Part shown: positions 1 through 40,815 of the stretch, one piece after another | Layout: the number at the start of each line of letters is the position of its first letter | Position numbering within the stretch: the stretch's first letter is position 1 | DNA from: Somniosus microcephalus | Taxonomy: Eukaryota | Direction: 5' to 3' | Length of the DNA stretch: 64,000 bases | NCBI GenBank assembly: GCA_052327205.1 | Contig: CM126206.1 | Coordinates: forward strand, 284,580,001 to 284,644,000 | Program-made: the position numbers and the translations under genes | The notes under the pieces: generated by a model | Seen by the model: only the letters and a program-made list of their open reading frames with translations | Databases searched by the model: none | Told to the model about the DNA's origin: nothing

Positions 1-1532
1 GTGGTGGAGGACATTTTGATGACCTCAAGCCATTTCGAGTGCGCATCCACGGCTATTAAAAACATTGAGTCCATGAATGGACCAACAAAATCAATATGCA
101 CCCGTTGCCATGGAGATGAGGGCCACTCCCATGGGTGTAGAGGGACATGTGGTGGTGCACTTTGGATTTTCTGGCATCCTGAGCAGCTCTTGGTCAGGTC
201 CTCGATTTGTTTATCGATTCCCGGCCACCACACATAAGCCCTGGCTAGGCTTTTCATTTTTACCCCTCCCAGATGACCCTCATGAAGCTCATTGAGCACT
301 CTATCCCTTAACTTGGGTGGAATTACCACTCGGGATCCACACATCAAGGTCCCCCGGCACACTGACAGCTGTTCTCTCCTTGTCGAGAATGCTGGCAACA
401 GTGAGTCGCCATGTGCTGGCCATCCCTTCACCGTCAAATCATATACCCAAGACAGTGTCAGGTCATTTCGGGTTTCCTTTTCGATACAAGCGTTAGTTAC
501 CGGTAGGTATTCAACTATAGTCGAATGGAATATTTCGACAGGATCCACTGCTGGTGCTTCGTCCGCAGTAGGCAGTGGCAGGCGTGATAGCCCATCAGCA
601 TTTCCATGCTGTTTTGTGCCCTTATATTCAATCTCATAGTGGTGCGCCCCTAGAAAAAGTGACCATCTTTGTAGTCGTTGCGCAGTCATCACTGGAACGC
701 CCTTCTTCGGATTAAAAATGGAGACAAGAGGCTGGTGATCAGTCAGCAAGGTGAATTTCTGCCCGTGCAGATAGTGATTGAACTTTTTCACTCCCCACAC
801 TAGGCTGAGGGCCTCCCTGTCAATCTGGGCGTAGTTACGCTCGGCTGAGGTTAGTGATCGTGACGCAAAGGCTATTGGCCTCTCTGAGCCGTCCGAGAAT
901 TTGTGCGACAGCACCGCTCCAATGCCGTAAGGTGACGCATCACATGCCAACCGAATTGGTAATGCTGGGTTGTAATGGGCCAATACCTTTCGATGTGATT
1001 AGTGTTTTGCTCTTCTGGAAAGCTCATCTACATTCGTCACTCTACTTCCATGGCACCCCAATTTGCAGTAGGGTGTTCAGTGGGTGTAGTATTGTAGACA
1101 AATTTGGCAAGAACTTATGGTAGTAGTTTACCAGCCCGAGGATCGACCTCAGTTGTGACACATTTTCCGGTGCTGGAGCCTTGACTACTGCCTCAATCTT
1201 CTCTGGGGACTTATGTAACCCCTCTTTATCGATAACGTGGCCAAAATACAAGATCTGTTTTCTCAAAAACTCGCATTTGGGGCGGATAGCTCGGAGCCCA
1301 TATTCCTGCAATCTAGTGAGCACCTGCTCCAGGTTGGCAAGCTGATCACTGTCATTTTCGCCCGTGACCAGGATGTCGTCCAAATAACACTGGTTCCCTG
1401 GGATCCCTTGCAGGACTTGTTCCATTGCCCTCTGCCAAATAGCCGGAGCTGATGCTACCCCGAATACCAGCCGGTTGTATTGGTAGAGACCTTTGTGGGT
1501 GTTGATTGTGAAGTATTTTTTTGATGCTTCTT

Positions 1533-3164
1533 CTACCTCCATTTGCAGATACGCCTGGCCAGATCAATCTTAGTGAAGCGTTTCCCTCCAGATAGCGAGG
1601 CGAAAATATCTTCAATCCGCAGAAGTGGATATTGTACGGTGTGAAGGACCGGGTTCACTGTTACCTTAAAGTCCCCACAGATGTGAACCTTCCTTGGTTC
1701 CCCAGGCGTGCTGCTCAACGACTTTTTCATCACAGGGACGACGAGTGTAGCCCACTCACTCCAGTCTACCTTGAACAGTACACCTGAACGTTCCAGACTC
1801 TCCAGCTCTGCTTCGACGGCTGGGCGGATCGCATAAGGTACCGGTCTGGCCTTAAAAAATTTTGGGCTTGCGTTTTCTTCAATTTTAATCGTCGCTGTCA
1901 TGCCTTTTAGTGTTCCGAGTCCTTGCTGGAACACTTCTTTCGCGTCAGTTAGGAACTTTGACAGTCGCCCAGGTGTGACGTCGTCATCCTTTTTGTCAGC
2001 CACAGTCAGTGCCTGTATGGAATGCCAATCCAGTTGTATTTTCCGGATCCATTCACGTCCCAGTAATGGTGGTCCTCCATCTTGCAATACATACAGGTCT
2101 AGTTTTGGTGTTTCCTTACCGTTATATATAACGGTCACCCTTATTTTTCCTTTGGGGTAGACTTTTTGCCCCGTGTACGTCTTCAAAATAATTTTTGTGT
2201 CTCTCAAGGGTATGTGTGAGAATAGCCGCTCGTAGTCCCGTCGGTTTATGACTGTTAGGGCTGATCCTGTGTCCAATTCCATCTTTACCTGGACTCCTGC
2301 TATCTTGAGAGTGACCCAAATGGTTCGGTGATCCTCCGTTGTGATCACATTATGTAGTTTCAGACAACTCAGTTCCCTGCTTTCGGAGTCGTTATTACTC
2401 TTTTGTCCGTCTGAACTATTCTCCGTCATCTTATGTACCTTCTTGTACTTTCCTTTGGTAGGTTTCTTATTGCTGGTTTTCTTTCCCGACCTGCAGACTC
2501 GTGCTATGTGTGCTACTTTTACACACTGTCTGCACACTTTGTCTTTGAACCAGCAATCATTCTGGTCGTGTGTTGTTGTGCCGCAGCGATAGCACTTCTC
2601 TGTTCCATATGACATTTCATTTGTGCCATATTCTTGCGGTCTCTGTTGTATCTCTGCAGCGCCCCGTGCTGCTGCTTCATATGATACCGCAATGCTGAAA
2701 GCCTTTTCCAGCGTAAGGTCCTTTTCAGATAAAAGCCGTTTCTGGGTTCCTTCACTTTGAAGCCCACACACAAACTTGTCCCTTAAGGTATCTGCCAGTC
2801 CCGCTCCAAACTGGCAGTGTTTCGATAGTTTGCGCAGTTCTGTTAAATAATCAGCATTGCTTTCATCCTTACGCTGGTTCCGTTTGTGAAACTTGAATCT
2901 TTCTGCTATCAGCAGCGGTGTGGGGTTTAAATGTTCCTTTAGTATCGTTACTATGTCTTCAAAACTCTTTTCCATTGGCTTCGTTGGGGTTACTAGATTT
3001 CGTAATAACCCATACGTCTTTGCACCCATTAAATTTAACAATACCGACGCTTTCTTGTCATCTGACACCTCATTTGCATTGCAGTACACCTCTATTCGCT
3101 CGACATATGTAGTCCAATCTTCGACTTCATTGTCAAATGCGGTGATACTGCCACTCTTCGGCAT
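1533..3164 (-). pseudogene. Gypsy gag-protease-RT (N-terminal) ORF ending in a frameshift
   Basis: MPKSGSITAFD... gag, CYRCG..H..C knuckles, ELDTGS protease, ICGDFK RT motif; close paralog of 8404-10905. Confidence 0.93.
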
Positions 3165-3683
3165 TTTGGGTGTGGTTTAAAATGGCGTCTCCTAATGGCT
3201 TAAAATGGCGTCTCCCGCGCTTTCCTTCCTCCCCCGCTGCTGCCAACGCTGCACTCGGCGGTCCTCGTGGCAATGGCGGCGCCTCGCGGGTTTCTGCGCG
3301 TCTCTCTCTCCCTCTCTCTGACGCTGCTCGGCCCCTGAACACCGGCTGCGCCCTGTGCGCTCTGCCCTCTCTCTCTCTCCCCCGTCGACGCTGCTCGGCC
3401 CTTTGCTGTGCCGCTCGGTCGGGCTCTAGCCCGCCACTGTCCGGGAAGGGTCTGCGCACTACCTGTTGCCAGCCCATTTCGCTGGACCACCTCGACTGGA
3501 AAGCCAAGCCTGGCTCTCGACAGCCTCCCCCGCAATTCTCGAGTCTCTGCTGAATGACTGGGCGGTTGCCCGTGGTCGACGCCCGAGTCTCTGGCCTTGA
3601 CCTCCAATCCACTGATCTCCAGGAACGAATCCCCGGGAGGTGATGCAGAGATGCAGGTAGGTTCGAACTTGCCTCGTCTTCAA

Positions 3684-3876: not shown

Positions 3877-5032
3877 ACCCCCCCCTCACCCCTTCCTCAC
3901 CCCCTCCTCACCCCCCTCACCCTCTCCTCACCCCTCCTCACCCCCCCTCACCACCTCCTCACCCCCTCCTCACCCCTTCCTCACCCTCCTCACCCTCTCC
4001 TCACACCCTCCTCACCCCCTCCTCACCCTCCTCACCCCCCCTCACCCTCTCCCCACCCTCTCCTCACCCCCTCCTCACCCGCCTCCTCACCCTCTCCTCA
4101 CCCTCTCCTCACCCCCCATCCTCACCCTCCTCACCCCCTCCTCACCCCCCTCACCCCCCCTCACCCTCTCCCCACCCTCTCCTCACCCCTTCCTCACCCC
4201 TTCCTCACCCCCCTCACCCTCTCCTCACCCTCTCCTCACCCCCTCCTCACCCCCTCCTCACCCCCCTCACCCCCCCTCACCCTCTCCCCACCCTCTCCTC
4301 ACCCCCCCACCCCCTCCTCACCCCTTCCTCACCCTCCTCACCCCCTCCTCACCCCCTCCTCACCCCTTCTCACCCTCTCCTCACCCCCTCCTCACCCCCT
4401 CCTCACCCTCCTCACCCCCCTCCTCACCCCCCTTCTCACCCTCTCCTCACCCTCCTCACCCCCTCCTCACCCCCCTCCTCACCCTCCTCACCCCCTCCTC
4501 ACCCCCCCTCACCCTCTCCCCACCCTCTCCTCACCCTCTCCTCACCTCCCCCTCACCCTCTCCTCACCCCCCTCACCCCTTCCTCACCCTCTCCTCACCC
4601 CCCTTCTCACCCTCTCCTCACCCTCCTCACCCCCCTCCTCCCCCCTCACCCTCTCCCCACCCTCTCCTCACCCTCTCCTCACCTCCCCCTCACCCTCTCC
4701 TCACCCTCTCCCCACCCTCTCCCCACCCCCTCCTCACCCCCTCCTCACCTCCCCCTCACCCTCTCCTCACCCTCTCCCCACCCTCTCCTCACCCTCTCCT
4801 CACCCTCTCCTCACCTCCCCCTCACCCTCTCCTCACCCTCTCCCCACCCTCTCCTCACCCTCTCCTCACCCTCTCCTCACCTCCCCCTCACCCTCTCCTC
4901 ACCCTCTCCCCACCCTCTCCCCACCCCCTCCTCACCCCCCTCACCCCCCCTCACCCTCTCCCCACCCTCTCCTCACCCTCTCCTCACCTCCCCCTCACCC
5001 TCTCCTCACCCCCTCCTCATCGCCCTCCCCCA
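3877..5032. repeat. Pyrimidine-rich tandem repeat with a variable (CCTCACCC(C/T)CT)-type unit of ~10-13 bp
   Basis: About 1.15 kb of cctcaccc variants; almost no G on the + strand. Confidence 0.97.
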
Positions 5033-7457: not shown

Positions 7458-10400
7458 TGTAGTGTATGTAACCTGAAGAAGGAACTATATTCTGCAGCCC
7501 CTGTATACTGCAGTACCAGTAGTGACCACCCCTGTATATAAGCCTGTGTAGTAACCTTGCATAGTAGTTCCAGTTTTGTCTCTGTTCAGTAAACACCTGT
7601 TATCACCAACTCCTGCAGTCCGTGTCTCAATTACACACGGACGTTACACTGGCGACAAACAGATCTGAACTTACCTACAGTTCTGCACCACCTCACGGGG
7701 ATCCATCCCTGAAGCGAAGTTATTGGAGGTCGAGGCCAGAAGGAAGAAATCCAAAAAGAAAAAAAAACAAACAGCAGAAACGGGCGTCGACCGTGGGCAA
7801 CCGCCCTCTGATTCATCGAATTAGAAGATTTGCAGGAGAGGCTGTCGAGAGTGGGGCTTGGTTATCCAGTCTATGGTGTTCCAGCTAATCGGGCTGGTGG
7901 CAGGTAGTACACTGATCCTTCCTGGGCTGCGGCGGGCTAGAGCTCGATCGGGTGGCTTTTCAACGGGGCCGAGCAGCATTGTCGGGAAGAGGAGAGAGAG
8001 AGAGAGGGTGGAGCACACAGGACGCGGCCGGTGCTACGAAGCCGGGCAGCGTACAGACCCGAGAAGAGGGAGGGAAGTGTCCCATAGGGTCTGCTCTGAC
8101 GACGGGATCAGTAATTAAAATAAAAGAAATTACAAGCGCAGAAAGCCGCGAGCAGCTGCAGTTTGCCACGGGGACCGCGGAGAGCGGCGTTGGCAGCAGC
8201 GCGGGGGGAAGCGCGCGAAGACCATAGGGCGTCGCCATCAAGGCATAAAAACGTCAGCAACAGCACTAGCAGCAGCGGGAAGGCAGAAAGCGCGGGAGGC
8301 GCCATCTTAATCCAGCGGGGAAGAAGGCAAAGCGCAGGAGGCGCCATTTTGTTCAATCGGGGAAGAAGGCAAAGCGCGGGAGGCACCATCTTAGATCTCC
8401 AAGATGCCGAAGACTGGCAATATCACTGCCTTCGATAATGCAATAGAAGACTGGACCACGTATGTGGAAAGAGTCGAAGTATATTGCGAGGCAAATGAAG
8501 TAGCCGATGAGAAAAAGGCATTGGTACTACTAAACTTAATGGGCGCAAGAACGTACGGCCTATTGCGGAACCTGATCACTCCAGTCAAACCGATGGCGAA
8601 GAGTTTTAACGAAATTGTTGATACCCTACAGGAACACCTAAATCCTACACCGCTGCTGATAGCAGAAAGATTTAAATTCCACAAGAGAAATCAGCATAAA
8701 GATGAGAGCAATGCTGATTACCTTACGGAACTACGCGGGCTATCGAAGCACTGCCAGTTCGGAGCAGGACTGGCAGATACCCTACGGGACAAATTTGTCT
8801 GTGGACTCCTGAGTGAAGGAACCCAGAAGAGGTTACTCTCAGAGAAAGAGCTGATGCTAGATAAGGCTTTCAGCGTGGCAGTATCGTACGAAGCAGCAGC
8901 AAGGGGAGCTGCGGAAATACAGCAAAAGCCACAGGAATACGGCACCCATGAAATGACATGGGGATTTGAAAAACGTTATCGCTGTGGCAGAACAACCCAT
9001 GACCAGAAGGACTGCTGGTCCAAGGACAAAACATGCAGGCAATGCAGAAAGATGGGACACATTGCACGAGTTTGCAGGTCCGGGAAGAAGACTAACGACA
9101 ACAAAAAGGCTACTAAGGAACAGTACAGGAAAGTACAAAAGATGACGGACAGTAGTTCCGAAGACCAGAAGAGCGATAGTGAATCCGGGAACAAGAGATT
9201 AACCTGTCTCAAACTACACAACGTAATCGCAAAAGAGGATCACCGAACCATTTGGGTCACCCTCACGATAGCAGGGTCCCAAGTCAAAATGGAATTGGAT
9301 ACAGGATCAGCCCTGACCGTCATGAATCGACGAGACTACGAGCAGCTATTCTCACACATACCCTTGAAAGACACATCCATTGTCTTGAAGACGTATACGG
9401 GGCAGAAAGTATACCCCAGAGGGAAAATAAGGGTGCCTGTCGAATACAATGGCAAGGAAATACAGAAATTGTATCTGTACATACTGCAAGATGGTGGACC
9501 ACCGTTATTGGGATGTGAATGGATCAGAAAGATAAGTTTAGACTGGCACTCCATTCAGGCACTGACTGTGGCTGGTAAAAAGGATGACGACGTCACACCT
9601 GGACGATTGTCAAAAATCTTAGCTAACGCTAAAGAGGTATTTCAACAAGGACTGGGAACTCTTAAAGGCGTAACCGCCTCGATAAAAATAGAAGAGAATG
9701 CAATTCCCAAGTTTGTCAAAGCAAGACTGGTACCGTATGCAATTCGCCCAGCCGCCGAGGCAGAGCTGGAGAATCTGGAGAATGCAGGCATGTTATCTAA
9801 GGTAGACTGGAGCGAGTCGGCGACACCCATCGTTCCTGTCATGAAGAAAACGTTAAACAATAAGTCTGAGGAGCCAAGGAAGGTTCGCATCTGTGGGGAC
9901 TTCAAGGTGACTGTGAACCCAGTCCTTCACACAGTACAGTATCCTCTTCCGAGGATAGAAGATATTTTCGCCTCACTATCTGGAGGGAAGCGTTTTACAA
10001 AAATTGACCTAGCACAAGCATATTTGCAGATGGAGGTTGAAGAATCCTCTAGGAAATATCTCACGATAAACACTCACAAAGGTCTTTATCATTATAATCG
10101 ACTGGTATTCGGAGTAGCATCAGCTCCGGCGATATGGCAAAGAGCGATGGAACAAGTCCTGCAAGGGATTCCGGGGACTCAGTGTTACTTGGACGACATC
10201 CTAGTGACAGGTGAAAATGACAGTGAACACCTTGCCAACCTAGAGCAGGTGCTCACTAGACTAAGAGAACATGGGCTACGAGCCAATCACCCCAAGTGCG
10301 AGTTTTTTAAGAAACAGATATCGTATTGTGGCCACGTGATTGATGAAGAGGGGTTACATAAGTCCCCTGACAAAATTGAAGTGGTAGTTAAGGCTCCAGC

Positions 10401-12651
10401 GCCTGAAAACGTGTTGCAACTGAGGTCATGCCTCGGATTGGTGAATTACTACCATAAGTTTTTGCCGAATTTGGCCACAATTCTGCACCCACTGAACGCC
10501 CTACTACAAACTGGAGTAGCATGGAAATGGAGCGATGAATGTAAGCGGGCCTTTCAGAAGTGTAAAGACCTGATCACTTCAAGAGAAGTATTGGCTCACT
10601 ACAACCCATCACTACCGATAAGACTGGCGTGTGATGCGTCTCCCTGCGGCATTGGAGCGGTACTGTCACATAAATTCCTTGATGGTTCAGAGAGGCCGAT
10701 AGCTTTTGCGTCACGCTCATTAACTTCAGCCGAGCGTAACTACGCCCAGATTGACAGAGAGGCCCTCAGCCTGGTGTGGGGGGTGAAGAAGTTCAATCAC
10801 TACCTGCACGGACAGAAATTTACTCTACTAACTGATCATCAACCTCTTGTCTCCATTTTCAACCTTCAGAAGGGCGTCCCGATAATGACAGCACAACGGC
10901 TATAGAGGTGGTCCCTTTTCCTAGGGGCACACCAATATGACATCGAGTACAAAGGAACTAAACAGCATGGGAATGCTGATGGATTGTCGCGCCTACCGTT
11001 GCCGATGGTGGAAGAAGCACCTGCAGTAGATCCTGTGGAGATATTCCACTCGACCATAATCGAATGTCTACCTGTGACGAATGCAAACATAGAAAAGGAA
11101 ACACGAAATGACCCGACACTCTCCAGGGTCTATGATTTAACGGTGAAGGGATGGCCAGCACATGGCGAACCACTGTTGCCAGCATTCTCGGCAAGAAGAG
11201 AACAGCTGTCAGTGTGCCGAGGAACCTTGATGTGTGGATCCAGAGTAGTAATTCCACCCAAATTGAAGGATAGAGTGCTCAATGAGCTTCATGAGGGTCA
11301 TCTGGGTGGGGTAAAAATGAAGAACTTAGCCAGAGCGTTTGTGTGGTGGCCGGGAATCGATAGAGAAATCGAAGAGATGACCAAGAGCTGTACAGGATGC
11401 CAGAAGGTCCAAAACGCCCCACCACAAGCCCCTCTACATCCATGGGAGTGGCCCTCATCTCCATGGCAAAGGGTGCACATTGATTTTGCTGGTCCATTTA
11501 TGGACTCGATGTTTTTAATTGCAGTGGATGCACATTCAAAGTGGCCAGAGGTAATAAAAATGTCCTCAACCACCACATAAAAAACTATCACAGTCTTACG
11601 AACCATATTCGCCAGAAATGGGCTGCCTGAACAGATTTGCTCCGACAATGGGCCACAGTTTGTGTCTGAAGAGTTCCGGAGGTTCTTAAAGAACAATGGT
11701 GTTAAGCATTACACATCCGCCCCATATCATCCAGCCACCAATGGATTGGCTGAGAGGTTCGTTCAAACATTCAAGAAGGCTATCAAGGCAATGTGTAATG
11801 AAGACATAGCCCTACAACACAAGGTGGATAACTTCTTGTTTGCCTACCGGAATGCGACACATGCGGTTACCAACCAAACTCCAGCCATGATGTTCTTCAA
11901 TCGAAGACTAAGATGCCGCTTGGATTTGGTTAAGCCAAACGTCAGAAGAGATGTGGAGAACAGGCAGTTTCAGAATATGAATGAAAGGCCAACCAGGAGT
12001 TTCAAGATAGGTCAACCAGTTTTGGCCCGGGACTACCGCACAGAGAAATGGCAGCCAGGAACGATCTGCACACGGCAAGGACCTCTAATGTATACCATGG
12101 ACGTTGGAGAGAGCATTGTAAGACGCCATGCTGACCAGATTCTAGAGTCACTGGAAAACATCAAATCTACACCGCGATCCTATACACCTGGTGATGAAAC
12201 CGAAGTACCAATTGCATCTACCTCAGAATCGGTGATATTGGAAGCAGACGAACCAAACAACGACGTTGATCCCGAATCAACTTTGCCAGAAGAACCTGAT
12301 ACCCCAAAGAGGCGTTATCCGGACAGAATCAGGAAGCCTCCTCAAAGACTGAATTTATAATTGATTACTTTCAGCTAATGTATATGGCAACTGTAATTGT
12401 AAATATGTTATTTAATTATTAACCGAATGTTATGTACTGTTTAGCTAAAAGGGGAGGAATTGTAGTGTATGTAACCTGAAGAAGGAACTATATTCTGCAG
12501 CCCCTGTATACTGCAGTACCAGTAGTGACCACCCCTGTATATAAGCCTGTGTAGTAACCTTGCATAGTAGTTCCAGTCTTTTCTCCGTTCAGTAAACACC
12601 TGTTATCACCAACTCCTGCAGTCCGTGTCTCAATTACACACGGACGTTACA
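7458..12651 (+). mobile_element. Full-length Ty3/Gypsy (Mag-like) LTR retrotransposon
   Basis: 191-bp LTRs at 7458-7648 and 12461-12651 (3 mismatches), TSD GTTTT on both sides, PBS TGGCGAC at 7650, PPT AAAAGGGGAGGAA at 12447-12459, single gag-pol frame. Confidence 0.98.
8404..12360 (+). pseudogene. Gag-PR-RT-RNaseH-IN polyprotein in one frame with two premature stops (10903-10905 TAG, 11578-11580 TAA)
   Basis: ORFs 8404-10905, 10984-11580 and 11662-12360 share a frame. Motifs: LDTGS, YLDD, CDAS (RNaseH), HEGH...CxxC, DFAGP, SDNG, NGLAER. Ends RKPPQRLNL. Confidence 0.95.
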
Positions 12652-26283: not shown

Positions 26284-28202
26284 GGTGTAGCAGAGAGACA
26301 TAGCTCTTACAAGCTGGAGGCAAGGCACACAATTCTTACTGCACGAGCCAAGATGGAGGATGAACCTCTGAGTCATACCCATAATGCAATGCCACACTAC
26401 CGTATAAACTGGTGTACCAGGACATTGAATACATGACCCATTACCTTAAATACTGGTGAATGTGAACCCTTAATATTTGGCTCCATCTGGTGGATAACTT
26501 AAACATTACATCCCAGATTACTATATCCCTCCCCTCTTAAGTTGAACATTAATTTCTTAACAACATTCTTAAAAAGTCCCATAAGGAAACTCCTTTAACG
26601 ATCGTCCATACTGAACGAATCTAGCAGGTCGTTATCAATTTCTCTGGTGGCTCGTGAGACCTTGGTGAATGTCTTACAGTCAAGTCCCTGCTTGGTTGTG
26701 GTAGAGCCACCTGCTGCTCCTGAGCAGTACTCAGAGTATCTGATTCTGCTACGATGGTTTCCTCTTGACGAAGGGGTCCAGGTGGAACTGGCTCTGTTCG
26801 TGGTGGTGGTACCACCGATGCATTTGGATAACTGGGGGCCAACTTGTCCTCCAACATCTCCTCTGGAACCTCCATTTCGATTTCCCCTTGTCTGGTCAGT
26901 TTCTGATCTACATGTCTGCGTACTACCTGACCAGTTCCCACCATGACCGTATATGATACTGGACTGGTCATTGAGTCTATGACGCCAGGAATCCATTTTG
27001 GACCATAACTGAAATTCCTGGTAAGGACCGCATCTCCTTCTCCAAAACTGCAGCTCTTTGTCCTTCTGTCATGGTTCTCCTTTTGTTTGATTTGTCGATG
27101 TTCCACCTTCCTTTTTAGGTCTGGGTGAACCAGGTCAAGAGTGGAGCGTAGTCGACGTCCTAACAACAGCTCAGCAGGAGAGAGTCCTGTGGTGGATTGA
27201 GGTGTTATTCTGTAGCTGAACAGAACTCGTGACACCTTGGCCAAACTCCCTTCTGCACTTTTTTTCATCATCTCCTTAAATGTTTGTACGGCTCTCTCTG
27301 CAAGGCCATTTGAAGATGGATGATATGGAGCTGAGGTCACGTGCACTATGCCATTGTTTCTCATGAACTCTTTTGTTTCTGTACTCACAAAACACGTGGC
27401 ATTGTCACTTACTACGATCTCCGGTAGCCCTTGATTACTAAAACTCCGATGCAGGCAGTCTATAGTAACAGTAAATAAAGCAGAATTTACAGGATAAACA
27501 TCCATCCATTTGGAATGGGCATCAATGATTATGAGGAACATCTTTCCCATGAATGGACCCGCATAATCTACATGTAATCTTCTCCATGGTTTATCCGGCC
27601 ACTCCCAGGGGTGGAGAGGAGCCGCTGCTGGTGCCTTCCTGTGTACTTGACAAGTGCTGCATGTCTTGACTAGATTTTCTATCTCCTCATCTAGTTTTGG
27701 CCACCACAAGTAACTCCTTGCCAAGGCTTTCATACGTGAAACTCCAGGATGACACTGATGTAGTTGCCCTAGGATAGACTGTCGTGCTGGCTGTGGAATA
27801 ATCACTCGTGCTCCCCACAACACGCAACCATCCTGCACACCCAGCTCTGTCTTCCTGACACTGTAAGGTGTGAAATCAGTCCCTTCCGGATGCTGTGGCC
27901 AACCCCTCATCACATATTCTCAGACTCTAGACAGTACTAGATCTTTACCGGTCCATGTCCTTACTTGTTCTGCGGTCACAATTGCCGTGTCCGTGTCCTC
28001 CAACATCAAAACTCTGTCCTCTGGAGCTGCATGGATAGGTGTACCTGGCAGTGGAAGACGGCTCAAGGCATCTGCGTTCCCATGGTACTTGCCCACCTTG
28101 TAAATGATGACATACTCATATGCCCTCAACGACACTGCCCACCTCTGGATCTGCGGTGACACCATCTGTGGTACTGCTTTCATTTCATTAAAAAGAGATA
28201 GA

Positions 28203-31200
28203 TGTTAAGTACGTGTATTGTATTGAACAATTAACACAAAGACTTAAACGTATAACTCAAACAGGTCTTTACTGGTTGGAGGTAGGGACTGCACGTAGGT
28301 CTTTACTTCATGCCCACAGGCGGGAACTGAGGGGAGATCAGTACCCACAATACTATTTATACCCCTATGGCCAGGAGTGGTACTGCGTATCACTACGCCC
28401 TACAAGTAGTGCAGTCCCGTCCATAGGTTCAAAGTAGCACACATATTACATACACAACATTCCTCCCTTCTTAGCTTTACAGTCATCTCCCCATTTAACA
28501 TAACGTAATAACATATATACATATATAACTTCAGGTTTACATAACAGAATAACATAGATACATAGATAACTTCATGTCAAAACAGATCACAGATTCAGTC
28601 TCTGCAGAAAACAGTTCACAGATTCAATCTCTGTGGTGTAGTCGGTTCACGTTGCTGGAGTGACTCATTCAATAGTCCTTCCATGGATTTAACAGTTTGA
28701 ACTTCCGAAATGAATTGGCTCTGTTCGGAGGGACCACGTGTGTGATCTGGTAGAGGTAATAATGGTTCAGATGGGTCATCTTCTGTTTCGACTTTTCCTT
28801 TTCTGCTTCTTGGAGACTCTCTGGGCTCCACTGTCAGCTGCCAGCTGCATGCGCAGTTCCTCCTTCTCTTCCTCCTTTTTCCGTAGTAGAGCCACCTTCT
28901 CCCGATGTTCCGTAGACTTTCGGTGCTCCTCCATGATTTCTGTATGGTGGGAGTCGAAGTTACAAGTTGGGCAGGGCAGGACATAGTAATATTCGGTGTC
29001 GTCCTGATCTAGGCCAGCGAGAGGGTCTTCTATTTCCTCCATACCCAGCTGGGCGTTAGCCAGCTTTTGTTCCAAGTCCAGACATCTTTCCTGAAGAGAC
29101 TTCTTCATGCGTACCTCTTCATCCAGCTTTTTCTGGGCTTTCAGCAAGTCGTTTACTAATGACCTCATTTGAGATTTTACTACTTCAACTTCTTTTGGAG
29201 ATTGATTGATCGGACTATTCAATCCCTCTACCGGAGCAGCTGTTTCAGCGGTCTGTTGTTCTACGTTGACGTGAGTCAGCGTACTTTTGGCATCCAAGGG
29301 CTGCTCTGTTGCAGTCATCTCAGTCTGTGTTGCCACCTCAGCTCTTCCAATAACCTTTGAGAGCTCCGAACCCCTTTCGTTTGAATATTGAAGTTCGTGT
29401 TCAAGTTTTTCCCATTTCAGAGTCCTGTCCTTCAGCATATGCAGGAGTTGGCTGACCGTTAACTCCTCTGACATCAGACGTTTTGTGTGCTCCTGCTCCA
29501 TTTGCTCCAGCAGCTGCTTCTGTTGTCTTTCCAGATGTTCTCACTCTATATCAAAGAACTCTTTCGTCGCATTCATCTCTTGCTCAAAACGGCGAATCAT
29601 TTGTTCTAATTGCTGTTGCAGTTTGAAATGGAGTTGAGTTCGAGCCCGGTGTCCCTCAGAAATGTGCATGTCAGTAGACTGGACAGACTCAGAATTCTCT
29701 ATCTCAGTGGAATTCTGTGCTGAAACTTTGTCTTTTGCACACGGGTTGGTCTTACCATCATCAGTTCCAGAGTCTGGGTTGATTATGTTCACCGAGTTCT
29801 CACTCGTTATTGTTTGTAGGAAATGCCAGTCCATATTCATTTTCCTAATCCACTCCCGTCCTAGTAGTGGAGGACCTCCTTCAGATATCACATATAAGTC
29901 CATTATTTGACTGTCTTCGCCCTTGTGGACCACTGCAACCTCTATTTTCCTGATGGGGTACACTCTTTGCCCCGTGTATGTTTTCAATATAATCCCCGTA
30001 TCCTGTAGGGGAATATGTTGGAATAACTTTCCGTAATCTTTCTTATTTATGACCGTCAATGCCGATCCAGTGTCCAATTCCAGTTTTACTTGGACTCCTT
30101 CTATCTGAAGAGTGACCCAAATTGTCTGGAGGTCTGCACCCTTACCAGCGTTGAGTACTCTTAAGCTAGCCAGTTCATTACAGCTTAAGCTAGCCAGTTC
30201 ATTACTGCTAGCGTCTGAATCGGACTCCTGTTCGGTCACCTTGTGTACCTTTGCGTATTTTCCTTGCGGTGACTTCTTGTTGCTGGTCTTCTTCCCTGAC
30301 CTGCATACTCTAGCTATATGTCCAAGCCTACCACAAGTTCTACATTCTTGGTTTTTAAACCAACACTGGTTCTGATCATGCGTTGTCTTTCCACAACGAT
30401 AACATTTGCCAGAACTCACACCCAATTTGTGTGCACTGAGCTCCGGTGACCGTAGCTGCATTACTGCCGTGCCTCTCGCTGCGGCTTCGTGTGCTGCTGC
30501 CATAGTGACCGCCTTCTCAAGCGTCAGCTCATTCTCCTCGAGGAGTCGCTTTTGTGTATCCTGTTTAAATAAACCACACACAAATTTGTCTCGTAGTGCA
30601 TCTGTCAGTCCCGTTCCAAACTGGCAATATTTCGCTAATTTACGCAATTCCAGCAAATATTCAGCATTGCTTTCATGCTGTAGCTGCCTTCTGTCATAAA
30701 ATTTAAATCGTTCCGCTAGCATCAGCGGCGTGGGGTTTAGATGATCTTTCAGGACAGTAACAATCTCATCGAACGTCTTATCCGTCGGTTCATCTGGTGA
30801 TAACAGGTGTTTCAATTGCCCGTATGTCTTCGCACCCATTAAATTTAATAATGTTAGAGCTTTATCTTGGTCACGAATTTTATTGGCCTTACAATAATTT
30901 TTTACTCTTTCAACATATATGGCCCAATCTTCGAGGTCACTATCAAAGGTGCTAATATTCCCGTGTTTAGGCATCTTCTTCTCTTCTCGAGAACAACACA
31001 AGTATTGCTTCACTTATTTCTTGTTTCTGAAAATTCTTATTAATTTTCTAAGATGGCAGTTTCCCACTTCTGCCTTCTTCCCCAGCGGTTTTCCCGCGAA
31101 AAATGGCGGCTTTCCCGCGCTTCTCGCTCTCCCCGCCCACTTCAATGGCGGTTTTCCCGCGCTTCTCGTCGCTGACTTTCAGCCCGACTGCGGCCCTTAT

Positions 31201-31905
31201 CTCCTGTGCGATCGCTGGTGCGCCGCCCGCCCGAAGCGGTTCTCAGCCCTTATCACCGGTGCGATCGCTGGCCCGCTAAGCGCCTCCCGCTTGAAGCGGC
31301 TCCCGGCCTCTGGCTCACCCGCTCGCGCGGCTCTTGCTCGCTCCCTCCCGGGCTCTGGCTTACCCGCTCGCGCATTTCACCGCGGCTCTTATCAGGGATT
31401 GCGATCGCCCTTATCTCCCGATCGGTGACCCTGTCTTTGCAGCCAACGCTGCTCGGCTTACCCACGAGGTTATGGAGGCTTCAGGGTCCTAATGCCTGTC
31501 GCTTCCAGTCGCTGGAAGCTGTCAGGATTTCTGCTGCCCTTCAGTTTTCAGTGGGGTGTTGAGGATTGAAACCTCTCTTCAACGTCCTGTCTTTGGACGA
31601 AGCCGCCGTGGAATAACTGCCGCAGGGTTCGAACCGACTCGTCGCCAATGTTAAGTATGTGTATTGTATTGAACAATTAACACAAAGACTTAAACGTATA
31701 ACTCAAACAGGTCTTTACTGGTTGGAGGTAGGGACTGCACGTAGGTCTTTACTTCATGCCCACAGGCGGGAACTGAGGGGAGATCAGTACCCACAGTACT
31801 ATTTATACCCCTATGGCCAGGAGTGGTACTGCGTATCACTACGCCCTACAAGTAGTGCAGTCCTGTCCATAGGTTCAAAGTAGCACACATATTACATACA
31901 CAACA
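28203..31905 (-). mobile_element. Nested non-autonomous Gypsy-derived LTR element: gag-protease fused to captured host-gene fragments, no RT/RH/IN
   Basis: 257-bp LTRs at 28203-28459 and 31649-31905 (3 mismatches), TSD ATAGA (28198-28202, 31906-31910), PBS TGGCGACGAG, PPT AAGAAGGGAGGAA; interrupts the host RNaseH. Confidence 0.97.
28776..30974 (-). CDS. Chimeric ORF gag-PR-(STK10/SLK coil)-(OPTN coil)-(DNAJC21 zinc finger), with one in-frame TGA at 29541-29543
   Basis: MPKHGNISTFD gag, two CCHC knuckles, LDTGS. ORFs 29541-31013 and 28776-29501 are in the same frame. Downstream segments resemble host proteins (see findings). Confidence 0.8.
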
Positions 31906-34900
31906 ATAGAAGAGGTTTATGATCAGTGCATATGGTGAATTTCCTGCCATATATGTACTTGTGAAACCTCTGTAACCCAAACATTACTGCTAACCCCTCT
32001 TTATCTAACTGGGAATAGTTTTTTTCCGCTGGTGTCAGAGTTCGAGACATAAACCCTATTGGTCTTTCTGTTCCATCTTCCAAGCTGTGTGAAAGAACCG
32101 CCCCCACCCCGTAAGGTGAAGCATCACAAGAGAGAATGATGTCTTTCTCTGCATTGTAGTGAACCAGCACATCCGAGGACAGCATCAGTTTCTTGGACTG
32201 TTCAAATGAAACCCTCTGTTCCTCTTCCCACTGTCACTGTGTCTCCTTACGCAGAAGTTTGTGAAGAAGTGCTAACACTGTTGCCAAGTTTGGTAAAAAT
32301 CTGTTATAATAGTTTAGCAGTCCCAGGTAAGCTTTTAACTCAGTCACATTGGTAGGAGCTGGGGCCTCCTGCAGTGCTTGTACCTTCTCCTTGATTGGAT
32401 GGAGCCCGGTGGCATCCACTCTGTGTCCCAGGAACATGGCCTCATTCCCCAGGAAAGTGCACTTACTCCTCTTGAGCCGTAACCCAGCCTTATCCAATCT
32501 TTGTAGTACCTCTCTCAGAGTGCTCAGATGCTCCTGGCCGGTTCTTTCTGTCACCAGAATGTCATCCAGATAGATTGAAACATGTGGGATCCCTTGCAGT
32601 ACACCCTCGATAGTCCTCTGGAAAATAGCTGGACTAGATGAGACACCGAATGGTAAGCGGTTATAGGTAAACAAACCCTTGTGTGTATTTATGGTTACAT
32701 ACTTCTTGGATTCCTCATCTAGTGTAATCTGCAAGTATGCATGACTCATATCCAGCTTCGTGAATTTCTTCCCTCCAGCCAGGTTCGCAAAGAGATCCTC
32801 TGTTTTGGGAATAGGATACTGTTCTAGTTTAGACACCCTATTTACTGTCAATTCATAATCTCCACAGAGTCTTACCGAATTGTCCGGTTTTAAAACAGGT
32901 ACAATGGGAGCTGCCCATTCTGAACATTTCACGGGTTCCAGTATGTTCTCGCTCAAAAGACGGTCAAGCTCAGCCTCTACCTTCGGTTTCATGGCATACG
33001 GCACAGGTTGTTGTTTAAAAAACCTTGGCAGTGCCTCCTTGTCTACATAAATCTTAGCTGGGGGGCCATTAAATGTGCCAAGTTCTTCCTTGAACACGTT
33101 CTCATGTTCAATCAACACTTCTTGCAAAGACAACTGTTTGCCTCCCTCTATTTGATTTATTGCTCCCCAATCTAATTTAAGTTCTTGTATCCAGCCCCGA
33201 CCTAACAGGTTTGGTCTGGAACCCGATACTACAACTACAGGTAGCTGTTCCACGGTGTCCCTGTGTTGCACAGTTACAGTAGCTGTACCCAATGTCACCA
33301 CTCGTTCACCGGTATATGTTTTAAGCTGCATAGAACAAGACTTTAACTCTGGAACTTTTGCACGGTTCCACAATTTTGAGTACTCCTCCCTGTTCATTAT
33401 GGTCACACCGCATCCTGTATCCACTTCAAAGTTGACCTTAGAGTCATTTACTGTCAGTTGCAAAGTGATAGGATCCACTTTTGGAATGTTCTCTACCATA
33501 CTATGCATTATGCACATGTCGTCTTCTTTCTCAGCTTCTCCGCTGATGTAATGTGCTCCCTGTTTTTTCACTTCTCTTCCTAGGTTTTGCTTTTCTCCCC
33601 CTTTTGGTTTGTATTCCTCCATGGTTGCTTTTGCCCTGCATGCACATTTTATATGTCCTTTTTTCCCACACTTGTGGCACTTTTCCTCCAGAAACCTGCA
33701 TTCCCTCGCCAGGTGATCACCATTGCATCTATAACACACCTTCACATGCTCATGTTGTGGTTTCTGATGCATGTTTAACATGTGCACAATAACCTGACCT
33801 GCAACTTGCTTTGTAGTAGCCCAGTCTGAACCTTATATTTCTTTTACATCTTGGTTCGCTGTCTCTATGGCTTGAGCAAGTTCCAACGCTTTTTCATATG
33901 TAAGCCCAGTCTCGGACAATAATCTCCGCTGCATTCGATCATCCATTATCCCGCAAACTAGCCTATCTCGCAGCATGTCTTTCAGGTTGTTGCCGTAATT
34001 GCAATCGTGTGCCAATTTCCTCAACACCGCTACATAATCCAATGCAGTCTCTCCCGGTTTCCTGTTCCCTGAATTAAATTTGAAACGCTGTACAATCTCA
34101 CTCAGTCTGGGATTGAAATGGTCCTTCAGCAAGGCCAGTAAGTTAGCAAATGATCTGTCTCCAGGCTTTTCAGGACTGCATAAGTTTCTCATCAAACTAT
34201 ACGTCTGACTTCCCACGGAAGTGAGCAAAATCGCTCTCCTTTTTCCGACGTCATTTATATCATTTGCTTCAAAGAAATGCATCAACACCTCGCAGTATTC
34301 ATCCCAGGTCTGCGTCTGAACATCAAAAGCAGAGATCTTTCCTACCGTAGCAGCCATGATCCGTTATTCAGTGCTCCTTTTCTTTTTTTTTCTTCGTCAA
34401 GATGTGATCTGTTGGTCCTCGTCGCCAATATGTGATATCCGAGTGGTAAGGTCAGAAACTGAGATAAGCGAGATATTAGGAACAAAACCCAACTGTTTAT
34501 TTACACGGTGAAGCAGAGAGACATAGCTCTTACAAGCTGGAGGCAAGCACACAATTCTTACTGCACGAGCCAAGATGGAGGATGAACCTCTGCGTCATAC
34601 CCATAATGCAATGCCACATTACCGTATAAACTGGTGTACCAGGACATTGAATACATGACCCATTACCTTAAATACTGGTGAATGTGAACCCTTAATATTT
34701 GGCTCCATCTGGTGGATAACTTAAACATTACATCCCAGATTACTATACAAAATTAATCCAATTGAGTAGCAAAGTGTCTGTTTGCTTTCCAATTGGTTTG
34801 GGAAGGCAGTGCACCCGGAAGATGGAGCAATGGCGGGAGGGTGGGGGCGGAATGGTTCAAGGTGGAAGGTCATGTGATGAAACCTTCAGGAATACGCTCA

Positions 34901-40169: not shown

Positions 40170-40815
40170 GTCATCACAGCCCCAGGGTCGGGCAGGCGGT
40201 GTCATCACAGCCCCAGGGTCGGGCAGGCGGTGTCATCACAGCCCCAGGGTCGGGCAGGCGGTGTCACTCCAGCCCCAGGGTTGGGCAGGCGGTGTCGCCC
40301 CAGCCCCAGGGTCGGGCAGGCGGTGTCACCACAGCCCCAGGGTCGGGCAGGCGGTGTCACCACAGCCCCAGGGTCGGGCAGGCGGTGCCACCCCAGCCCC
40401 AGGGTCGGGCAGGCGGTGCCACCCCAGCCCCAGGGTCGGGCAGGCGGTGCCACCCCAGCCCCAGGGTCGGGCAGGCGGTGCCACCCCAGCCCCAGGGTCG
40501 GGCAGGCGGTGCCACCCCAGCCCCAGGGTCGGGCAGGCGGTGCCACCCCAGCCCCAGGGTCGGGCAGGCGGTGCCACCCCAGCCCCAGGGTCGGGCAGGC
40601 GGTGCCACCCCAGCCCCAGGGTCGGGCAGGCGGTGCCACCCCAGCCCCAGGGTCGGGCAGGCGGTGCCACCCCAGCCCCAGGGTCGGGCAGGCGGTGCCA
40701 CCCCAGCCCCAGGGTCGGGCAGGCGGTGCCACCCCAGCCCCAGGGTCGGGCAGGCGGTGCCACCCCAGCCCCAGGGTCGGGCAGGCGGTGCCACCCCAGC
40801 CCCAGGGTCGGGCAG
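40170..40815. repeat. GC-rich 31-bp minisatellite, ~21 copies
   Basis: Unit GCCACCCCAGCCCCAGGGTCGGGCAGGCGGT. Confidence 0.98.

Follow-up and report, generated by a model that had tools for sequence, protein, structure and literature searches.

A non-autonomous Ty3/gypsy family of the Somniosus microcephalus genome that probably arose by reverse transcription of an STK10 circular RNA

Circular RNA-derived pseudogenes are genomic copies with a non-colinear exon junction; in mouse, 33 such copies of circRFWD2 have LTR-enriched flanks, and the mechanism behind these copies, which number in the tens, was called mysterious (PMC4897178). The shark family described here resembles them in its copies of a non-colinear junction and in its association with LTRs. 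It differs in that the parent, both switch points, the one-turn length and an in-frame Gag-protease fusion are known, and in its size: the junction occurs in more than 1,100 copies, and the descendants number about 7,700. In LTR-mediated retroposition, as laid out by Tan et al. (2016, PMC5131818), partial spliced host RNA replaces internal ORFs with microsimilarity at the switches, and multi-gene chimeras, further non-autonomous rounds and sense transcription are reported. ORF replacement, microsimilarity, chimeras, re-mobilization and sense transcription are shared with the shark family. In contrast, the cases described there occupy one or few insertion sites and the shark family thousands, with serial gain of cargo; as to a circular template, ‘circ’ has no occurrence in that paper. 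The maize element Bs1, as presented there, is likewise an LTR element that carries pieces of three unlinked host genes and was re-mobilized, but it is a plant element for which these pages describe no circular-RNA origin, and the copy number of the shark family is far higher (PMC5131818).

The plant elements known as TR-GAG (Chaparro et al. 2015, PMC4350172) are similar in being shorter than 4 kb, with LTRs, one Gag ORF, no RT or integrase and apparent activity. No host cargo is described in the abstract, whereas the shark Gag-protease runs into 340-670 host residues. With a protease and host cargo in its ORF and a length of 3.7 kb, in sisters of the window element up to about 4.5 kb, the shark element is not a TR-GAG. 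Mouse IAP 1-delta-1 is internally deleted and non-autonomous as well, out-transposes its parent and has a cis-acting fusion ORF; it is a betaretrovirus-like ERV with a Gag-Pol fusion, in contrast to the Gag-host fusion of the shark family (PMC6466679). In the literature searched, mostly openly accessible papers exclusive of the 2016 locus supplements, we found no report of the shark family, of circSTK10 or of the in-frame capture of a circle by a gypsy element. LTR capture and circRNA pseudogenes are already known; in published work we came across neither their combination nor such a scale.

The initial annotation of the window (the whole 64,000-nt stretch of DNA analyzed here) had pointed to positions 29475-29657 as a captured piece of the PKK coiled coil of STK10 or SLK. 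This segment sits in a 3,703-bp non-autonomous Ty3/gypsy element on the minus strand (28203-31905). The element is flanked by identical 5-bp target-site duplications (TSDs; 31906-31910 on the 5′ side, 28198-28202 on the 3′ side). Its 5′ LTR of 257 nt with TG...CA ends (31649-31905) has three mismatches to the 3′ LTR (28203-28459). A putative primer-binding-site (PBS) position, similar in the parents, adjoins the 5′ LTR (31631-31648), and the sequence of 28460-28480 is a polypurine tract (PPT). RT, RNase H and integrase are missing. With TG...CA LTRs, PBS, PPT and a TSD within the range of 4-6 bp, the element has the hallmarks of a non-autonomous Ty3/gypsy derivative. A 732-codon frame encodes Gag with CCHC knuckles and an aspartic protease (29823-30974), matched weakly by the Pfam profiles zf-CCHC, RVP and gag-asp_proteas, all under their cut-offs, and then about 340 residues of non-element sequence up to the stop at 28776-28778. 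From the Gag N-terminus and the single ORF we assume that the element belongs with the Mag clade.

The sequence behind the protease, all on the minus strand, is a mosaic. Remnants of STK10 exon 9 (29653-29805; positions 327-404 and 470-566 of the circle described below, 92% and 77% nucleotide identity to the host exon) are followed by the 3′ part of exon 11 (29571-29657, the first half of the segment, 95%) and the 5′ part of exon 12 (29476-29570, the second half, 84%). At the former site of the back-splice junction lies an optineurin (OPTN) piece of four spliced exons (29032-29483), 72% identical at the amino acid level to shark OPTN (E 4e-50) and 81-92% at the nucleotide level to four host exons on C17. 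It is followed by a degenerate jaz-type C2H2 zinc-finger piece (28785-29031), for which less-derived copies align at 74-80% nucleotide identity and pass the PF12171 cut-off. The end of exon 8 and the start of exon 9 come next, permuted behind exon 12 (28664-28784; 85-87%, circle positions 108-190 and 248-294), and terminate at the family-wide exit point. A remnant of the parent integrase C-terminal tail (28608-28663), with the same start as in the parents, completes the interior. A further gypsy element, which carries several stops, surrounds the whole (26621-34363); the insertion falls in its RNase H region. Elsewhere in the window, related gypsy elements in inverted orientation (1-3200 and 8400-11600) are 76-84% complementary, and GC-rich minisatellites with periods of 11 nt and 31 nt occupy 3877-5028 and 40177-40815.

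The annotated peptide is the minus-strand translation from 29657 to 29475, with a TGA at 29541-29543; a plus-strand reading of the segment was considered and is meaningless. The gap-free similarity to STK10 given in the initial annotation holds at the DNA level, where 162 of 182 nt (89%) agree without gaps with host STK10 exons 11 and 12. The exon 12 part directly abuts the exon 11 part and the 1,029-nt host intron between them is absent, hence the template was spliced RNA. With X put at the stop, PF12474 (PKK) matches at 37.3 bits (E 3.6e-9, cut-off 25) over profile positions 1-49 of 139. The top protein matches over the segment are shark STK10 proteins with 72-77% identity. Using the 348 residues after the protease as query we obtained 27 proteins: 15 optineurins (top 72%), 11 kinases labelled or annotated as STK10-type and one other, unnamed kinase with the same domains; the best STK10-type matches (72-77%) come from sharks and rays. 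As to the choice between STK10 and SLK, STK10 is the source: the exon 11 part has 93% amino acid identity to it vs 64% to the locus on C30, the one paralogue in this comparison, the matching exons of the third paralogue being outside the 30 kb fetched. SLK as source was rejected with this figure of 64%. Generic coils without nucleotide similarity to the host do not account for the segment, since the best matches are STK10 and the DNA is identical to host exons to the extent given. Capture from STK10 is practically certain.

The proposal that the stop post-dates the capture was borne out, as the TGA occurs in none of the 19 other top copies. At the position of 29541-29543, 107 loci were readable: 56 have the host Leu codon, 50 another sense codon and one a stop, the latter in a copy of a different, unrelated subfamily. 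That the TGA sits at a Leu position is right for the host codon but not for the window's nearest sisters, which had already left Leu. The label of a separate first captured segment needs a similar amendment: the capture from STK10 stands, yet other pieces of a 1,245-nt capture flank 29475-29657 on both sides, and the segment is probably a remnant of this one circular-RNA event. A role in localization and RhoA binding had also been attached to the segment. The match ends at profile position 49 in the window copy and at 78 in the fullest copies, so that even these hold part of the first PKK repeat and no complete repeats; with about one third of the first repeat left, it appears unlikely that the window copy retains this function. 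We found no literature passage confirming RhoA binding by this region of the ERM kinases, and a PDB search of the cargo and the zinc finger gave no significant match.

Kinase and C-terminal queries located the host STK10 gene on C8 at 167.17-167.28 Mb, with exons 80-98% identical to a shark protein labelled STK10, on which identity the assignment is based; exon numbers follow the exon series. Two further STK10/SLK-family loci lie at C8 2.19-2.42 Mb and C30 27.43-27.51 Mb, making three paralogues in all. A separate intronless copy of the 3′ part of STK10 (C3:354658271-354658948, loci L021 and L036; 97% amino acid identity) stands beside a CR1-like LINE and is an ordinary retrocopy, apart from the element family. 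Host exons 8-12 have AG/GT borders (one GC donor), sum up to 1,245 nt and close in frame; a circle of them read twice round has no stop. A search with the whole protein returned copies with STK10 residues 376-704 followed by 290-389. Ten of the least-derived copies, picked from the best matches of this search, were fetched and aligned to the doubled circle. All ten have the exon order 9-10-11-12-8-9 with 98.5-99.0% identity, ungapped over 1,259 nt. They enter in exon 9, pass an exon 12|exon 8 junction whose two exon borders are exact and share just 2 nt, and exit 14 nt beyond the entry point. Sequence of exon 7 or 13 had no match in these ten copies, and queries with STK10 residues 1-290 and 705-977 revealed no element swarm in the genome. 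The family thus has what identifies a retrocopied circRNA, a reversed-order junction exact at the splice sites and no exons from outside the circle. In the window copy the back-splice junction was lost under later cargo, the permuted order of exons 8 and 9 behind 12 survives and the circle is left at the same base as in the rest of the family. We consider a circular template for the STK10 capture very likely.

The element side of the switch points could be found as well. Apart from sites that continue with the host base, the entry site had 22 exact matches, namely 15 autonomous elements and seven STK10-bearing variants. The 15 autonomous parents are 5.2-5.4 kb long and have one Gag-PR-RT-RH-IN frame, 99% LTR identity and TSDs. 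Pfam gave the order PR-RT-RH-IN without env on a parent frame of 1,351 aa, and the parents had no further long ORF on the sense strand. Their protease-RT linker shares 11 exact nt (13/14) with the circle. A comparison of the circle with 3.1 kb of parent L107 gave no other exact match as long; in parent L109 there are four sites of 10 nt, the entry match among them. The integrase tail has 6 exact nt (7/8) in common with the circle, at the position that the linker also matches. Between these two points, Pol sequence of about 2.65 kb was replaced, so that internal ORFs replaced, microsimilarity at the switch points and lost introns, the marks of an LTR-mediated retrocopy, are all present. The window Gag-protease is nearer to a second parent lineage, with 87% nucleotide identity vs 77% to the other, and the family is thus a recombinant mosaic. 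A secondary recombination is seen in locus L028, where the circle is left in exon 8 and the tail that follows belongs to a different parent lineage.

The 6.45-Gb genome was searched with the window element; 40 matches were scored of 6,155 candidates and the best 20 compared. The 5-bp TSD is exact in 18 of these, has one mismatch in one and is cut in one, and in 14 of the 19 other than the window copy the frame stays open to roughly its usual end. The window copy itself is young and has a stop of its own. A 32-nt back-splice junction had 1,140 matches genome-wide (≤2 mismatches; reversed control 0), the exit junction 7,681 (≤3 mismatches; control 0) with one common exit point, and the window-type junction 4,305 (control 0). 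The undeleted exon 9 site had 84 matches, which are 83 full-turn copies and the host gene. The copies form a nested series from the full turn through a 414-nt deletion, a long OPTN piece and OPTN plus finger (L169) to the window type, and the identity to the host drops along it from 99% to 81-92%. The first 26 junction matches on C1 served as a sample, of which 19 were fetched and seven already seen, six of them of the full-turn type, were left out. Among the 19 loci the Gag-protease is present in all and the 414-nt in-frame deletion in 18; KMT2A was added in four, obscurin Ig domains in three and both in two. Taken unselected, the first 20 loci on C1 that match the exit junction exactly have OPTN in 20/20 cases and an unbroken frame in 15/20. 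Median LTR-pair identity per class is 98.7-99.2%, and since the cargo is only 81-95% identical to the host, this points to a long chain of replication cycles that would lie behind the family. Copies with identical scores lie in groups on a single contig (C40 and C28), which suggests segmental duplication or uncollapsed haplotypes, and the counts are maybe slightly inflated.

Descendants gained OPTN, obscurin, KMT2A, a jaz zinc finger and a myosin-tail-like coil in frame, which together with STK10 makes six host sources, and the cargo switch points show 5-10 nt of microhomology. An OPTN query led to 15 loci with spliced OPTN exons in place of the junction, mostly 95-100% identical; one exon is at about 86% due to a 21-nt deletion. 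The long OPTN cargo (L134-L148) presumably includes the LC3-interacting motif, and the stretch in question is deleted in the dominant window type, whose cargo consists of a PKK stub, OPTN and the finger. At the host OPTN locus (C17:85884656-85885539, L133), two extra bases in A-runs, at one exon end and the next exon start, shift the frame relative to the element copies and the shark OPTN protein; they are either an assembly error or a real lesion. The KMT2A cargo of L101 and L026 corresponds to residues 2506-2673 (93%), a stretch which we take to include the first taspase-1 cleavage site. Host exons of the myosin-tail-like coil, found in 15 element copies, are on C27, and we presume the gene to be CGNL1. 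Locus L153 (C2:48.70 Mb) has another coiled-coil stretch in frame ahead of the OPTN piece, possibly a seventh cargo. For the finger host gene a word-index search found none, HMMER over representatives gave three weak matches, two with jaz/met fingers, and the atlas leads zf-met/jaz were weak and under the recognition threshold; a PF21884 search returned only a locus on C17, and the genome searches were dominated by element copies. DNAJC21 is our assumed lead for this gene.

As a whole, the family is probably explained by a back-spliced STK10 circle of exons 8-12 (1,245 nt), reverse-transcribed by a Ty3/gypsy element, of which the segment is a remnant. The switch-point anatomy is as observed above; the enzymatic order we infer. 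The circle would have been co-packaged with the retrotransposon and copied by its reverse transcriptase. During minus-strand synthesis the RT would switch from the element RNA to the circle at a microhomology of 6-8 nt in the integrase tail, copy the circle once round and then meet template already cut by RNase H; the length of one turn would be what the destruction of the template by RNase H imposes. From that same spot of the circle, the RT would jump back to the protease-RT linker of the element RNA by way of the 11-nt match. The product kept both LTRs, PBS, PPT and an open Gag-protease-cargo frame in exchange for RT, RNase H and integrase, and would presumably be trans-mobilized by the autonomous parents. 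Descendants then lost 414 nt, exchanged Gag-protease and LTRs with a sister lineage and added, by later microhomology switches, pieces of at least five more host mRNAs. A long frame in the place of Pol may favor cis packaging of the translated RNA and avoidance of nonsense-mediated decay.

The same product could come from a two-step route via an empty precursor in which the protease is joined directly to the tail, with both crossovers within 14 nt, but no such precursor is among the 22 exact entry-site matches. A linear template, in the form of tandem exons or trans-splicing, or two switches on linear STK10 mRNA, would dispense with the circle; other routes to non-colinear junctions were noted by Dong et al. 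(PMC4897178), and the native exon 12-8 joint is absent among the listed joints of RNA runs X21 and X17, whose library types had not been selected with circles in mind. It is nevertheless very unlikely, given a junction exact at both exon borders and host exons 8-12 that are single-copy in 31 kb of the locus; moreover, independent uniform ends would give one turn plus 14 nt by a coincidence of about 2% (29/1,245). An intronless STK10 3′ retrocopy does exist in the genome, and a generic coil or ordinary LINE-type retrocopy inside an LTR element was therefore weighed too. Against it stand the ungapped DNA identity across the exon junction, the replacement of Pol with microhomology at both ends, the absence of poly(A) and of an internal TSD, and thousands of copies with identical breakpoints, and we give it next to no probability. 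The circular template remains our preferred reading.

With the same origin, the cargo protein might aid the element, its coils (STK10, OPTN, myosin-tail-like), Ig domains and RNA-binding-type finger, either tethered to Gag or released from it, serving as assembly spacers, RNA binders or host-defense decoys. Raw Nei-Gojobori dN/dS is 0.2 for PKK and 0.4 for OPTN (Gag-protease vs parents 0.15-0.27, autonomous history included); clear purifying selection on the cargo, as these values might be read, was weakened under a null matched to the mutation spectrum. Under this neutral null the window PKK piece has 8 changed residues relative to the host vs 11.6 expected (P 0.028), and PKK plus OPTN 34 vs 41.7 (P 0.014), while the STK10 tail behind the stop is neutral with 9 vs 8.3. 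These figures speak for an aiding cargo, as does the fact that the most amplified type bears coil and finger. On the other side, four other copies gave P 0.07 (L156), 0.03 (L162), 0.50 (L169) and 0.29 (L138), values that are not independent due to shared history, and from one subfamily to another the cargo is readily exchanged, trimmed or lost. The cargo residues are under weak selection, at most a mild constraint, and we judge a cargo that aids the element to be rather unlikely, and a functional cargo in general slightly more so. The cargo seen is all in sense orientation and 13 of the 13 junctions examined inside continuous frames are in frame, although several subfamilies were found by protein searches biased to such cargo and microhomology between coding sequences by itself favors a kept frame; in the window type the last junction shifts the frame and the ORF ends about 170 nt early. 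Because of the sense orientation and the in-frame junctions we favor selection for an open translatable frame in the Pol slot, as reported for the cis-acting fusion of mouse IAP 1-delta-1. Such selection is rather more probable than not to be the main force and is likelier than a working kinase PKK domain. The PKK piece is most likely a passenger coil and not a working kinase-targeting domain. That the family, founded on a circular RNA, acts as an evolving exon-shuffling platform that samples host coding pieces in the Pol slot, with some of them (PKK coil, OPTN coil, jaz finger) spreading since the fusion protein serves the element, for instance in particle assembly or autophagy evasion, is improbable to us.

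Four sequencing runs were mapped on host exons 8-12. For organism B, run X3 reaches depths of 1.5e4-2.7e5 in the exon bins, compared with some 20-30 in unique intron. The run also has the back-splice joint, and contigs of an independent run show the same joint; the family is present in organism B. Organism C, whose introns diverge by about 3%, has the same depth in exon and intron bins of run X4, hence it lacks the family. Raw RNA run X21 (one library of organism A, 24% read) had 366 and 352 first mates on exons 12 and 11 vs 18 and 13 on the other strand; by the usual library convention the majority strand is sense. The element-specific deletion joint is crossed by 148 reads with 31 starts, and exon 10, missing from most copies, has a depth of 0.15. 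The family is transcribed in X21, where the strand bias and the low level of the far more abundant intronic repeats disfavor DNA carry-over.

The family supplies the missing anatomy of a passage from circular RNA to genomic DNA, in which the RT of an LTR element would go once round between two microhomologies; the route to circRNA-derived pseudogenes had been left open in the defining paper (PMC4897178). It also documents vertebrate LTR gene capture on a very large scale, by arithmetic about 7,700 copies, roughly 28 Mb and 0.4% of the assembly. The 1,140 genomic back-splice junctions, together with element transcripts far above the level of the host gene, would corrupt circRNA calls in this lineage and likewise distort the gene-family counts and expression values obtained for STK10, OPTN, KMT2A and obscurin. 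If the reading as an exon-shuffling platform were true, the abundant transcripts may in turn act on STK10 and OPTN through small RNAs or in a dominant-negative way. Finally, the serial in-frame gain of six host genes makes the rules of capture and selection for non-autonomous elements readable from one family.
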